Sequence record: MH355584.1
From: Escherichia phage vB_EcoM_JB75
Reading direction: 5' to 3' (one strand)
Length of the DNA: 64,000 bases
Shown: positions 34,591 through 55,916 of the stretch, piece by piece
Layout of the letters: the number at the start of each line of letters is the position of its first letter
How positions within the stretch are numbered: position 1 is the stretch's first letter
Position numbers and translations under genes: made by a program
The notes under the pieces: model-generated
Database searches by the model: none
What the model was told of the DNA's origin: nothing
The model's input: only the letters and a program-made list of their open reading frames with translations

Positions 34591-35793
34591 ATGAAAGTAT
34601 GTATTTTTATGGCTCGAGGTCTTGAAGGTTGTGGTGTAACAAAATTCTCACTCGAGCAACGTGATTGGTTTATTAAAAATGGTCATGAAGTAACTTTGGT
34701 TTATGCTAAAGATAAATCATTTACTCGTAATTGCGCGCATGATTATAAATCATTTTCAATTCCGGTTTTATTGGCAAAAGAATATGATAAAACACTTAAG
34801 CTGGTAAATGATTGTGATATTCTAATTATTAATTCAGTTCCTGCTACTTCGGTTGAAGAAGACACTATTAATAACTATAAAAAAATTATTGATAACATTA
34901 AACCTTCTGTTCGTGTTGTAGTTTATCAACATGACCATTCTTCTCTTTCTTTGCGTCGAAATTTGGGATTAGAAGAAACTGTTCGTCGAGCTGATGTTAT
35001 TTTTAGCCATTCTGATAATGGTGATTTTAATAAAGTTCTGATGAAAGAATGGTATCCAGAAACAGTTTCTCTGTTTGATGATATTGAAGAAGCGCCGACT
35101 GTATATAACTTTCAGCCTCCTATGGATATTGCGAAGGTTCGGTCAACCTACTGGAAAGATGTTTCTGAAATTAACATGAATATCAACCGTTGGATTGGTC
35201 GTACGACTACATGGAAAGGTTTTTATCAGATGTTTGATTTTCATGAAAAGCATCTTAAACCTGCAGGACTAAGTACTATTATGGAAGGTCTGGAACGTTC
35301 TCCAGCGTTCATTCCTATTAAAGAAAAAGGAATTCCATACGAGTATTATCGTCTTCATCAAGTAGACCAAATTAAAATTGCTCCTAATTTGCCAACGCAA
35401 ATTCTTGACCGTTATGTAAATAGCGAAATGCTTGAACGCATGAGTAAATCCGGATTTGGTTATCAGTTGAGTAAGTTGGATAAAAAATATCTGCAACGTT
35501 CTTTAGAATATACTCATCTCGAGCTTGGTGCATGTGGAACAATTCCGGTATTTTGGAAATCTACTGGCGAAAATTTAAAATTCCGTGTTGATAATACTCC
35601 TTTGACCTCGCATGATAGCGGTATCATTTGGTTTGATGAAAATGATATGGAATCAACGTTTGAACGTATTAAAGAACTGTCATCTGACCGAGCTCTTTAT
35701 GACCGTGAGCGAGAAAAAGCATATGAATTTTTGTATCAGCATCAAGATTCAAGCTTCTGCTTTAAAGAACAGTTTGACATTATTACAAAATAA
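34591..35793 (+). CDS. agt: DNA alpha-glucosyltransferase
   Basis: 400 aa, near-identical to recalled T4 alpha-gt (…CIFMARGLEGCGVTKFSLEQRDWFIKNGHEV…). Confidence 0.95.
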   Translation: MKVCIFMARGLEGCGVTKFSLEQRDWFIKNGHEVTLVYAKDKSFTRNCAHDYKSFSIPVLLAKEYDKTLKLVNDCDILIINSVPATSVEEDTINNYKKIIDNIKPSVRVVVYQHDHSSLSLRRNLGLEETVRRADVIFSHSDNGDFNKVLMKEWYPETVSLFDDIEEAPTVYNFQPPMDIAKVRSTYWKDVSEINMNINRWIGRTTTWKGFYQMFDFHEKHLKPAGLSTIMEGLERSPAFIPIKEKGIPYEYYRLHQVDQIKIAPNLPTQILDRYVNSEMLERMSKSGFGYQLSKLDKKYLQRSLEYTHLELGACGTIPVFWKSTGENLKFRVDNTPLTSHDSGIIWFDENDMESTFERIKELSSDRALYDREREKAYEFLYQHQDSSFCFKEQFDIITK

Positions 35794-46668: not shown

Positions 46669-47409
46669 ATGATTAGTGACTCTATGACAGTTGAAGAAAT
46701 CCGTCTTCATTTGGGGCTTGCATTAAAAGAAAAAGATTTCGTAGTTGATAAAACTGGTGTTAAAACTATTGAAATTATTGGCGCATCATTTGTAGCAGAT
46801 GAACCGTTTATTTTTGGCGCTCTTAATGATGAATACATTCAGCGTGAACTTGAATGGTATAAATCTAAGAGTTTGTTTGTTAAAGATATTCCAGGTGAAA
46901 CACCAAAGATTTGGCAGCAGGTAGCATCTTCTAAAGGCGAAATTAACTCGAATTATGGTTGGGCTATTTGGTCAGAAGATAACTATGCCCAGTATGATAT
47001 GTGTTTAGCTGAACTTGGTCAAAATCCTGATTCTCGACGTGGTATCATGATTTATACTCGTCCATCTATGCAGTTTGACTACAATAAAGATGGTATGTCA
47101 GATTTCATGTGTACTAATACAGTACAGTACTTGATTCGTGATAAGAAAGTCAATGCGGTAGTAAGCATGCGCTCAAATGACGTGGTCTTCGGATTCCGTA
47201 ATGATTATGCATGGCAAAAATACGTATTAGATAAATTAGTATCTGATTTGAATGCAGGCGATTCAACTCGTCAGTATAAAGCAGGTTCTATTATATGGAA
47301 TGTTGGAAGTCTTCATGTATATTCTCGTCATTTTTATTTGGTTGATCATTGGTGGAATACTGGCGAAACTCATATTGTGAAAAAAGACTATAAAGGTGAG
47401 TGGAAATGA
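46669..47409 (+). CDS. 42: dCMP hydroxymethylase gp42
   Basis: 246 aa, near-identical to recalled T4 gp42. Confidence 0.97.
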   Translation: MISDSMTVEEIRLHLGLALKEKDFVVDKTGVKTIEIIGASFVADEPFIFGALNDEYIQRELEWYKSKSLFVKDIPGETPKIWQQVASSKGEINSNYGWAIWSEDNYAQYDMCLAELGQNPDSRRGIMIYTRPSMQFDYNKDGMSDFMCTNTVQYLIRDKKVNAVVSMRSNDVVFGFRNDYAWQKYVLDKLVSDLNAGDSTRQYKAGSIIWNVGSLHVYSRHFYLVDHWWNTGETHIVKKDYKGEWK

Positions 47410-48248
47410 TTCAATTCGTAATTCCAAGTTATCAACGTGTCGGGGCAGTTTCTGCCCTTGATATGTTTCCGACTGATTATGAACCGCATATTATAGTGCG
47501 TGAACACGAAGAAAAAGCTTATTATGATGCCTATGGGTCTAGAGCTAAAATTATAACTATTCCTGATGATGTAAACGGAATTGCCGGTACTCGTAAAGCA
47601 ATTACTGATATGTATGCAGGTCAACGAATCTGGATGATTGACGATGATACTACTATTCGTATGAGTTCAATACGAAAGAGAGACGATAAACGGCGCGTAG
47701 ATAAAATTAATCAATTAACTCGTGAACAGTTCTATGAATTGATTCAATACGTTGAGGATGCCATGGATTGCGGGTATTATCATGGTCATGCTCGTCTACC
47801 AATTTTTAAAATTACTTCATCTTGGGGTAATTATCGTGAAAACTCATATGGATTCACGAATACATGGTATGACCTCGGAAAACTTACGACAGAACAAATT
47901 GGGTATGGAAAAATTGATTTGTGCGAAGATATGTATGCATTTCTCAATTTAATTAATCAAGGTTATCCGCATTTGGCCTTGTTCAAATATCTGGTTGTAT
48001 CTGGAAAAGCACAAGCTCCTGGCGGGTGCAGTTCAATTCGTAGTAATTCTAAACATAATAGAGCGCTTGAGCAAATCAATAGAGAGTTTCCAGAGCAAGC
48101 TCGTTGGAAAACTTCTAATATTGAAAAACGAAAATCGTTGGGTGAAGAAGATGAGCCATTAAAGGTTCTTCGCATGTGTGTTTCGCGTAAAGAAAAATCA
48201 GAAGCATTTCATAAGTTTAATGCTATTCATCCAATAGCAGTTGATTAA
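47406..48248 (+). CDS. GT-A fold glycosyltransferase in the beta-gt locus
   Basis: 280 aa; DXD-like WMIDDDT; differs in length and sequence from recalled T4 beta-gt (351 aa). Confidence 0.65.
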   Translation: MIQFVIPSYQRVGAVSALDMFPTDYEPHIIVREHEEKAYYDAYGSRAKIITIPDDVNGIAGTRKAITDMYAGQRIWMIDDDTTIRMSSIRKRDDKRRVDKINQLTREQFYELIQYVEDAMDCGYYHGHARLPIFKITSSWGNYRENSYGFTNTWYDLGKLTTEQIGYGKIDLCEDMYAFLNLINQGYPHLALFKYLVVSGKAQAPGGCSSIRSNSKHNRALEQINREFPEQARWKTSNIEKRKSLGEEDEPLKVLRMCVSRKEKSEAFHKFNAIHPIAVD

Positions 48249-48325
48249 TGCCTAAATTTATTGTGTTATAATTACTTTATCTTTAACCAGTGAGGAAAAT
48301 ATAATGATGCCTATGGAAAAAATGA

Positions 48326-49507
48326 ATGTCTATTGCAGATTTAAAATCCCGTTTGATTAAAGCTTCCACTTCTAAAATGACTGCTGAACTGACTACATCT
48401 AAATTCTTTAATGAAAAGGATGTAATCCGTACAAAAATCCCAATGCTTAATATTGCTATTTCTGGTGCGATTGATGGCGGTATGCAGTCTGGTTTAACTA
48501 TTTTCGCAGGGCCTTCTAAACACTTTAAATCAAATATGTCTTTGACTATGGTTGCGGCATATTTAAACAAATATCCTGACGCGGTTTGTCTATTCTATGA
48601 TAGTGAATTTGGTATTACTCCAGCTTATTTGCGATCCATGGGAGTTGACCCGGAACGAGTAATTCATACGCCAATTCAGTCAGTTGAACAGCTGAAAATT
48701 GATATGGTGAACCAGCTTGAAGCTATTGAGCGTGGTGAAAAGGTTATTGTATTCATCGACTCAATTGGTAATATGGCTTCTAAGAAAGAAACGGAAGATG
48801 CCTTGAATGAAAAATCTGTGGCAGATATGACTCGTGCTAAATCACTGAAGTCATTATTCCGTATTGTTACTCCTTATTTTAGCATTAAAAATATTCCATG
48901 TGTTGCGGTTAACCATACAATTGAAACCATTGAAATGTTTAGTAAAACCGTGATGACAGGTGGTACAGGCGTAATGTATTCGGCTGATACTGTATTCATT
49001 ATCGGTAAGCGTCAGATTAAAGATGGTTCTGATCTTCAGGGGTATCAATTTGTTCTAAATGTAGAAAAATCTCGTACCGTTAAAGAAAAAAGTAAATTCT
49101 TTATTGATGTTAAATTTGACGGTGGTATCGATCCTTATTCTGGATTGTTAGATATGGCTCTAGAATTAGGATTTGTAGTAAAACCTAAAAATGGTTGGTA
49201 TGCTCGTGAATTTCTTGACGAAGAAACTGGCGAGATGATTCGCGAAGAAAAATCTTGGCGTGCAAAAGATACCAACTGCACTACATTCTGGGGTCCTTTA
49301 TTTAAGCATCAACCATTCCGAGATGCTATTAAACGTGCTTATCAGTTAGGTGCTATTGATAGTAATGAAATTGTTGAAGCTGAAGTTGATGAATTGATTA
49401 ACTCAAAGGTTGAAAAATTTAAATCTCCAGAAAGTAAAAGTAAATCAGCTGCTGATTTAGAAACTGACCTCGAACAGTTAAGTGATATGGAAGAATTTAA
49501 TGAATAA
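48326..49507 (+). CDS. uvsX: Recombinase UvsX (RecA-like)
   Basis: 393 aa, near-identical to recalled T4 UvsX; Walker A GPSKHFKS. Confidence 0.97.
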   Translation: MSIADLKSRLIKASTSKMTAELTTSKFFNEKDVIRTKIPMLNIAISGAIDGGMQSGLTIFAGPSKHFKSNMSLTMVAAYLNKYPDAVCLFYDSEFGITPAYLRSMGVDPERVIHTPIQSVEQLKIDMVNQLEAIERGEKVIVFIDSIGNMASKKETEDALNEKSVADMTRAKSLKSLFRIVTPYFSIKNIPCVAVNHTIETIEMFSKTVMTGGTGVMYSADTVFIIGKRQIKDGSDLQGYQFVLNVEKSRTVKEKSKFFIDVKFDGGIDPYSGLLDMALELGFVVKPKNGWYAREFLDEETGEMIREEKSWRAKDTNCTTFWGPLFKHQPFRDAIKRAYQLGAIDSNEIVEAEVDELINSKVEKFKSPESKSKSAADLETDLEQLSDMEEFNE

Positions 49508-53997: not shown

Positions 53998-55337
<1,340 letters not shown>

Positions 55338-55397
55338 TTGCTTACATACTCAAATGATATAATTATTTAACTTATTGATGAATTGAAAGGAAAAATA

Positions 55398-55916
55398 ATG
55401 GCTTACTTTAACGAATGTAGTCAACTGATCGAAGGCGCTGATAAAGCTCAAAATGAATATTGGGATATTCTCGGTGATGAAAAAGACCCGCTGCAGGTAA
55501 TGCTTGACATGCAGAAATCTCTGCAGATTCGTTTAGCTAAAGATAAACCTGAATATAACCGTCATCCTGATGATTTGGCTACTGCAGGTGAAGTTGTTGA
55601 TTGGCTGCGTAATCAGAAAGATTATATTGATGATGAATTCCGCGAACTTCTGACTTCTCTTGGTGGTATGAGCAATGGTGAAAAAGATGCATCTGCTGTA
55701 TGGAAGCCTTGGAAAGCTCAACATGGTGAACGACGTGAAACTCTGATTACTGATTTGTCTCCACAAGACCAGTTGGAAATTAAATTCGAAATGATTGATA
55801 TTCTTCATTTCGTTCTGAACATGTTCCAAGGCCTCGGTCTTACGGCTGAAGAAATCTTTAAACTTTATTATCTGAAAAATGCTGAAAATTTCGCTCGTCA
55901 AGACCGAGGTTATTAA
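55398..55916 (+). CDS. 56: dCTP pyrophosphatase gp56
   Basis: Starts MAYFNECSQLIEG; position between dam and soc. Confidence 0.9.
   Translation: MAYFNECSQLIEGADKAQNEYWDILGDEKDPLQVMLDMQKSLQIRLAKDKPEYNRHPDDLATAGEVVDWLRNQKDYIDDEFRELLTSLGGMSNGEKDASAVWKPWKAQHGERRETLITDLSPQDQLEIKFEMIDILHFVLNMFQGLGLTAEEIFKLYYLKNAENFARQDRGY

Follow-up and report, generated by a model that had tools for sequence, protein, structure and literature searches.

Escherichia phage vB_EcoM_JB75 very probably encodes a T2/T6-type beta-glucosyl-HMC-alpha-glucosyltransferase between gene 42 and uvsX

In Escherichia phage vB_EcoM_JB75 (MH355584.1; hereafter JB75), the open reading frame lying between gene 42 and uvsX very probably encodes a beta-glucosyl-HMC-alpha-glucosyltransferase of the T2/T6 type (ba-gt, also named ggt or TAGT), an assignment to which we give a probability of about 0.93. 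It is based, in this analysis, on the identity and intactness of the gene, its predicted fold, its gene order, and the finding of both alpha-gt and gene 42 in the window. The window analysed is a stretch of 64,000 nt, i.e., 64 kb out of a genome of ~168 kb, and the relevant features are listed in Table 1. A first-pass annotation of this window had described a 280-aa protein with a WMIDDDT motif in the slot where T4 encodes its 351-aa beta-glucosyltransferase (b-gt), and had proposed a replacement of the kind known from T2 and T6. The description was found to be accurate in each of its factual elements, and the proposed replacement is supported by the comparisons reported below.

Table 1. Positions of ba-gt, its motifs, and the associated genes in the JB75 window.
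Feature	Position	Strand	Basis
ba-gt / ggt / TAGT, beta-glucosyl-HMC-alpha-glucosyltransferase, 280 aa, GT-A fold (predicted)	47406..48248	+	
WMIDDDT, residues 76-82	47631..47651	+	read from sequence
D79-D80-D81, predicted DXD-type metal and UDP-sugar binding motif	47640-47648	+	invariant in 49/49 family members
R11 codon, N-terminal IPSYQR motif	47436..47438	+	Arg in 49/49 family members; kept in JB75
gene 42, dCMP hydroxymethylase, hmC precursor	46669..47409	+	Pfam Thymidylat_synt 1.1e-15; gp42 in T6, T2, and T4 annotations
uvsX recombinase, downstream of ba-gt	48326..49507	+	ORF and synteny
alpha-gt, DNA alpha-glucosyltransferase, 400 aa, supplies the alpha-glucosyl-hmC acceptor	34591..35793	+	Pfam AGT 1.8e-237
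gene 56, probable dCTPase/dUTPase (true start likely internal)	55383..55916	+	partial Pfam dUTPase_2 match 1.7e-6

The start of ba-gt was taken as the ATG at 47406, as in annotated relatives, rather than as the GTG at 47400, which opens the same frame two codons earlier (282 aa) in the mechanical ORF list. From this ATG, the frame runs to a stop codon ending at 48248. The ATG and the TGA of gene 42 overlap as ATGA (47406-47409), and a Shine-Dalgarno-like stretch, AAGGTGAG, precedes the ATG; this arrangement suggests that the translation of ba-gt may be coupled to that of gene 42. A scan for sigma-70 promoters between 45400 and 48400 returned 18 sites versus 12.8 ± 3.7 expected, the T4 middle and late promoters being outside the coverage of the tool. 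Within codons 13-18 of ba-gt, a G+C-rich hairpin (GGGGCAG-TTT-CTGCCCT, 47442-47458) followed by a T-rich stretch was scored as terminator-like by the scanner, which reported four such sites in the region versus 1.2 expected; T6 has the same hairpin. Downstream, neither a segA nor a beta-gt-like gene was found between ba-gt and uvsX (48249-48325), unlike the equivalent interval of T4, which contains the 351-aa b-gt followed by the homing endonuclease segA.

The encoded protein was compared with its T2 and T6 counterparts using GenBank records; the original cloning of the T2 and T6 genes is reportedly that of Winkler and Rüger, in NAR in 1993. It shares 273 of 280 residues with T2 ggt (7 differences, 98%, in two independent T2 records) and 271 of 280 with T6 ggt (MH550421; 9 differences, 97%, an amber codon at position 10 of that record being counted as one). 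Five substitutions, V30I, M89I, R95K, C97R, and V101I, separate it from both enzymes, and all of these except V30I are common to the Durham phage EL, from which JB75 ba-gt differs at only 4 of 280 residues, as compared to 6 of 280 for phage QOTSP. The changes R11H and P251S of T2, and Y40N, D55G, and R106H of T6, are all absent from JB75. In agreement with these comparisons, the Pfam family PF20691 (TET-associated glycosyltransferase, TAGT) was matched with 40 bits against a gathering cut-off of 27.5, over positions 2-205 of a 205-position profile, and PHROG 842, named beta-glucosyl-HMC-alpha-glucosyltransferase, was matched at 4.7e-88. The protein also keeps R63, which, like R11 and D79-81, is invariant in all 49 aligned relatives, together with the PGGCS/R212 motif. 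The genomic context is that expected of a ba-gt, with gene 42 and uvsX on either side and an alpha-gt encoded in the same genome.

Homologs of beta-gt were always located, in the relatives examined (T4, G3F6, and others), in the slot downstream of gene 42 that is occupied here by ba-gt. Only this location, and loose names such as "putative beta-glucosyltransferase" in some records, favor reading the JB75 ORF as a diverged beta-glucosyltransferase of the T4 type, which would add one beta-glucose to hmC. However, BLASTP of JB75 ba-gt against T4 b-gt returned only chance fragments (E 4.2), so that the full-length alignment with the T4 enzyme named in advance as contrary evidence did not appear, and the T4-Gluco-transf family (PF09198) gave no match even at E up to 1. 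A genuinely diverged b-gt behaves differently, that of vB_EcoM-G3F6, 55% identical to T4's, matching T4-Gluco-transf at 2e-61. Moreover, the model of JB75 ba-gt is of the GT-A type, and T4 b-gt is ascribed a two-domain GT-B fold (PMC13216743). BLASTP, Pfam, and the fold search are thus all contrary to a T4-type identity, which we consider refuted, its residual likelihood being negligible. In parallel, no trace of T4 segA, T4 b-gt, or the b-gt-like protein of G3F6 was detected by tblastn in the 64-kb window.

The GT-A-like nature ascribed to the protein in the first-pass annotation was borne out by structure prediction. AlphaFold2 run on the single sequence gave an unusable model (pLDDT 36), and an alignment of 49 sequences was used instead, yielding a model with a pLDDT of 92 and a pTM of 0.90. 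As modelled, the fold is a single-domain, GT2-like GT-A, and the nearest structures retrieved by the fold search were transferases of the GT-A/GT2 type, among them TarS and TarP, which transfer GlcNAc to wall teichoic acid. No phage alpha-gt or beta-gt structure was present among the best structural matches listed. A sequence search of the PDB with JB75 ba-gt returned no glucosyltransferase and only two pyridoxamine-phosphate-oxidase-like chains at chance level (E 1.6-2), and no solved structure of a TAGT member was found by this search. The predicted fold agrees with the description of T6 TAGT as a GT-A enzyme belonging to a sister group of GT2 (2026 NAR; PMC13216743).

The chemistry, DNA composition, and defence consequences considered below are extrapolated from the literature on T2, T6, and near-identical phages. 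In the proposed pathway, gp42 would make hm-dCMP, the source of hmC in DNA, and the gene 56 product would probably deplete dCTP, hmdCTP being incorporated in its place. The candidate for gene 56 adjoins dam, as in the T2 arrangement, and its identification is probable, being weaker than that of the other pathway genes. The intact JB75 alpha-gt, found to be T4-like (91.5% identity to the T4 protein) as the first-pass annotation had stated, would then transfer glucose from UDP-glucose, in alpha linkage, to a fraction of the hmC residues. Finally, ba-gt would extend this glucose by another one, taken from UDP-alpha-glucose and joined through a beta-1,6 linkage, to give gentiobiosyl-hmC. A beta product formed from UDP-alpha-glucose implies an inverting mechanism, which is consistent with the GT2-like fold. 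D79-D80-D81 would bind a divalent metal and the UDP diphosphate, and a candidate for the catalytic base, proposed by comparison with inverting enzymes of the GT2 family, is D175, which 43 of the 49 aligned proteins share.

Previous studies have shown that the homologous ba-GTs of T2 and T6 act after alpha-gt, ~25% of hmC remaining bare, and that gentiobiosyl-hmC (beta-1,6-glucosyl-alpha-glucosyl) accounts for ~5% of hmC in T2 and ~72% in T6 (PMC6024577; PMC13160076), while the DNA of T6 delta-ba-gt contains alpha-glucosyl-hmC only (PMC11078745; PMC13160076). In Tequatroviruses carrying alpha-gt and ba-gt, LC-MS detected hmC, alpha-glucosyl-hmC, and gentiobiosyl-hmC, and beta-glucosyl-hmC was absent (PMC13390438). 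In the same study, EL, BGP, and Geo showed ratios of hmC, alpha-glucosyl-hmC, and gentiobiosyl-hmC of ~1:2:2, and QOTSP and six other phages contained about one-third hmC and two-thirds gentiobiosyl-hmC; this Durham Collection paper of 2026 likewise argues from synteny that TAGT stands in the T4 beta-GT position (PMC13390438). By analogy, JB75 DNA is expected to contain ~25-35% bare hmC, the remainder being alpha-glucosyl- and gentiobiosyl-hmC. Beta-monoglucosyl-hmC is not expected, a beta-gt being absent from the 64 kb, out of ~168 kb, that were examined. The suggestion made earlier for this DNA, that its glucosylation pattern is not that of T4, thus receives support from the LC-MS data on near-identical phages.

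A TAGT enzyme with a specificity other than that of T2 and T6 (another sugar donor, bare hmC as acceptor, or another linkage) was also considered. The TAGT family is broad, its members being paired with an alpha-GT or a beta-GT, and TAGT homologs occur alone in some phages (PMC13216743), so that specificities must differ somewhere within the family. For JB75, such a difference appears very unlikely, as the protein is 97-98% identical to its T2 and T6 counterparts and shares with them both the gene order and the alpha-gt partner. In addition, the residues specific to JB75 (I30, I89, K95, R97, and I101) all fall outside the positions reported as invariant or nearly invariant in the family.

If JB75 ba-gt is of the T2/T6 type, the extent of the second glucosylation is a separate matter. 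Gentiobiosylation ranges from 5% in T2 to ~72% in T6 among enzymes that are >96% identical, which indicates that only the kinds of modified base, and not the ratio of hmC, alpha-glucosyl-hmC, and gentiobiosyl-hmC, can be predicted from sequence. We therefore rejected an assignment of JB75 to a T2-like or a T6-like extent on the basis of its alleles, as neither the alpha-gt class nor ba-gt similarity tracks the LC-MS groups. T6 and EL have one alpha-gt allele but different patterns, and T2 and QOTSP, with the other allele, also differ in their patterns.

These two alpha-gt allele classes are ~8% apart. JB75 alpha-gt is identical to that of QOTSP and 2 aa from that of T2, and these three form one class, whereas 32-33 aa separate it from the T6/EL class (32 for EL); the alpha-gt of T4 is about as distant from that of JB75 as this second class. 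The differences between classes are concentrated at residues 47-118 and 221-298, a pattern resembling mosaic recombination, and the class showed no correlation with either the ba-gt allele or the modification patterns in the literature. In JB75, a ba-gt resembling that of EL is thus paired with an alpha-gt of the QOTSP/T2 class.

The close relationship with T2 raises the possibility that JB75 has the gene but a T2-like phenotype, i.e., a poor enzyme and mostly alpha-monoglucosylated DNA with a few percent of gentiobiosyl-hmC. Besides the proximity of the alpha-gt proteins, the Dam methyltransferase of JB75 (54558-55337) is 100% identical to T2 Dam, and the ba-gt of T2, although 98% identical to that of JB75, is associated with only ~5% gentiobiosyl-hmC (PMC6024577; PMC13390438; PMC13160076). 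However, R11H and P251S, the only ba-gt changes specific to T2, are not found in JB75. Furthermore, QOTSP, with an alpha-gt identical to that of JB75, has about two-thirds gentiobiosyl-hmC, and EL, with the closest ba-gt, ~40% (PMC13390438). A T2-like phenotype is thus unlikely, and our best guess for a T2/T6-type enzyme retaining R11, a residue changed to His in T2 alone, is that the gentiobiosyl fraction of JB75 DNA would be substantial.

Residue 11 of ba-gt is His in both independent T2 records and Arg in the 49 aligned members, T6 included. R11H, along with P251S, is a candidate hypomorphic mutation, because T2 was reported with so little gentiobiosyl-hmC; no mention of it was found in the literature examined. 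It may also be envisaged, tentatively and with a low probability, that a few allelic residues of ba-gt set the extent of the second glucosylation, in which case the combination found in JB75 could give a distinct intermediate ratio and its own sensitivity profile toward glycosylases directed at hmC and glucosyl-hmC. As for T6, codon 10 of ggt is TAG (amber) in record MH550421, CAG in the other T6 record (AP018814), and CAA in JB75. The coding sequence in MH550421 is annotated from Met20, and the product starting there would be devoid of the first beta-strand and of the invariant R11. This amber codon stems either from a mutant stock or from an error in sequencing.

The distribution of ba-gt was analyzed by tblastn. 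Homologs were found in 688 phage records; identity was at least 95% in 471, T6 ggt (96.8%) included, and at least 90% in 472, and many among the matches listed carry the name beta-glucosyl-HMC-alpha-glucosyltransferase. More distant homologs (63-65% identity) occur in T4-like phages of Klebsiella, Enterobacter, and Salmonella, and one at 48% in Serratia phage SP1. By comparison, a T4-type b-gt at at least 90% identity was present in only 29 records. These results are consistent with previous reports that 12 of the 14 sequenced T4-like RB phages have alpha-gt and a T2-type ba-gt, only RB55 and RB59 having the T4 pair (Thomas et al. 2018; PMC6024577), and that most GT-encoding phages pair an alpha-GT or a beta-GT with TAGT, alpha-GT plus TAGT being the usual combination and the alpha plus beta pair of T4 a rare state (2026 NAR; PMC13216743). 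The genotype of JB75 is thus that of the majority among the close relatives of T4, and the finding is correct but ordinary. Over the region 30000-54000, JB75 has ~99% identity to numerous Tequatrovirus genomes of Escherichia, Shigella, and Yersinia, vB_EcoM-PM105 and PM133 among them, and the 1.8 kb around ba-gt are 99.2% identical to JK08, PYps35T, and vB_EcoM_112, in which the ORF is annotated as "beta-glucosyl-HMC-alpha-glucosyl-transferase" or "glucosyl transferase".

Names are inconsistent in other records. In RB55 and RB59, the T4-type b-gt bears the name "beta-glucosyl-HMC-alpha-glucosyl-transferase", Ge15 labels its TAGT gene "alpha-glucosyl-transferase", and the TAGT genes of Sf21 and teqskov are the source of the name "putative beta-glucosyltransferase" mentioned above; a type of glucosylation inferred by name would be wrong in these cases. 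The record PV654520.1 (142 kb), entered as "Pseudomonas phage vB_PSGBLB0006" with P. aeruginosa as host, shares 98.6% identity with the JB75 ba-gt region, a probable case of mislabelling or contamination.

In at least 12 Tequatrovirus records, the TAGT gene is immediately followed, with overlap of its stop codon, by the gene of a 358-aa T4 b-gt homolog, and then by a 37-aa ORF. These records include G3F6/8/9 (the G3F6 protein cited above is from MZ234034), G3G6/7, CHD2BS1, CHD16UKE1, PM123, PM136, KMB26, UPWr_E2, and G2540, and some of them, also matching the region 30000-54000, are ~99% identical to JB75. The insert of ~1.29 kb is absent from JB75, with a breakpoint at ~48229-48275. Genomes of the G3F6 and CHD type align across the JB75 alpha-gt region and would thus encode all three of alpha-gt, TAGT, and a diverged beta-gt, a state described as very rare (2026 NAR; PMC13216743).

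A change in susceptibility to modification-dependent restriction had also been anticipated for this DNA, and this holds only in part. As to defences of the glycosylase type, T6 delta-ba-gt shows increased sensitivity to the Brig1 glycosylase (PMC11078745), and BapA, which does not deglucosylate gentiobiosyl-hmC, frees glucose from delta-g-gt DNA and not from that of wild-type T6 (PMC13160076). In contrast, enzymes of the GmrSD/BrxU type cut all these forms of hmC (PMC13390438; PMC13216743). The literature already covers the enzyme and its fold class, as well as its distribution and its role in counter-defence, and the value of the assignment lies in annotation, as it predicts gentiobiosyl-, alpha-glucosyl-, and bare hmC without beta-glucosyl-hmC. 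The expected hypermodification bears on whether Brig1-type glycosylases, BapA, hmC glycosylases, and GmrSD/BrxU act on JB75, and on the behaviour of its DNA with restriction enzymes and in sequencing. This may be of use for phage therapy or host-range prediction, and adds no new biology.

When compared to known systems, JB75 ba-gt resembles T4 b-gt (PF09198; PDB 1JG7) in its slot downstream of gene 42 and, according to the literature, in its UDP-glucose donor and its beta linkage on modified phage DNA, but it is unrelated in sequence, shorter, and of another predicted fold, and the acceptor of b-gt is bare hmC whereas that of ba-gt is alpha-glucosyl-hmC. The cellular GT2-family GT-A transferases TarS, TarP, K4CP, SpsA, and WrtF have only 8-15% sequence identity to it, and act on polysaccharides or teichoic acids as opposed to the glucosylated DNA used by TAGT. 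Among phages with a measured DNA composition, EL has the nearest ba-gt, yet its alpha-gt is of the T6/T4-like class, and QOTSP has the same gene pair and synteny. In its length of 280 aa, its place between gene 42 and uvsX, its invariant residues, its GT-A fold as predicted, and its alpha-gt partner, JB75 ba-gt agrees with the T2 and T6 enzymes.
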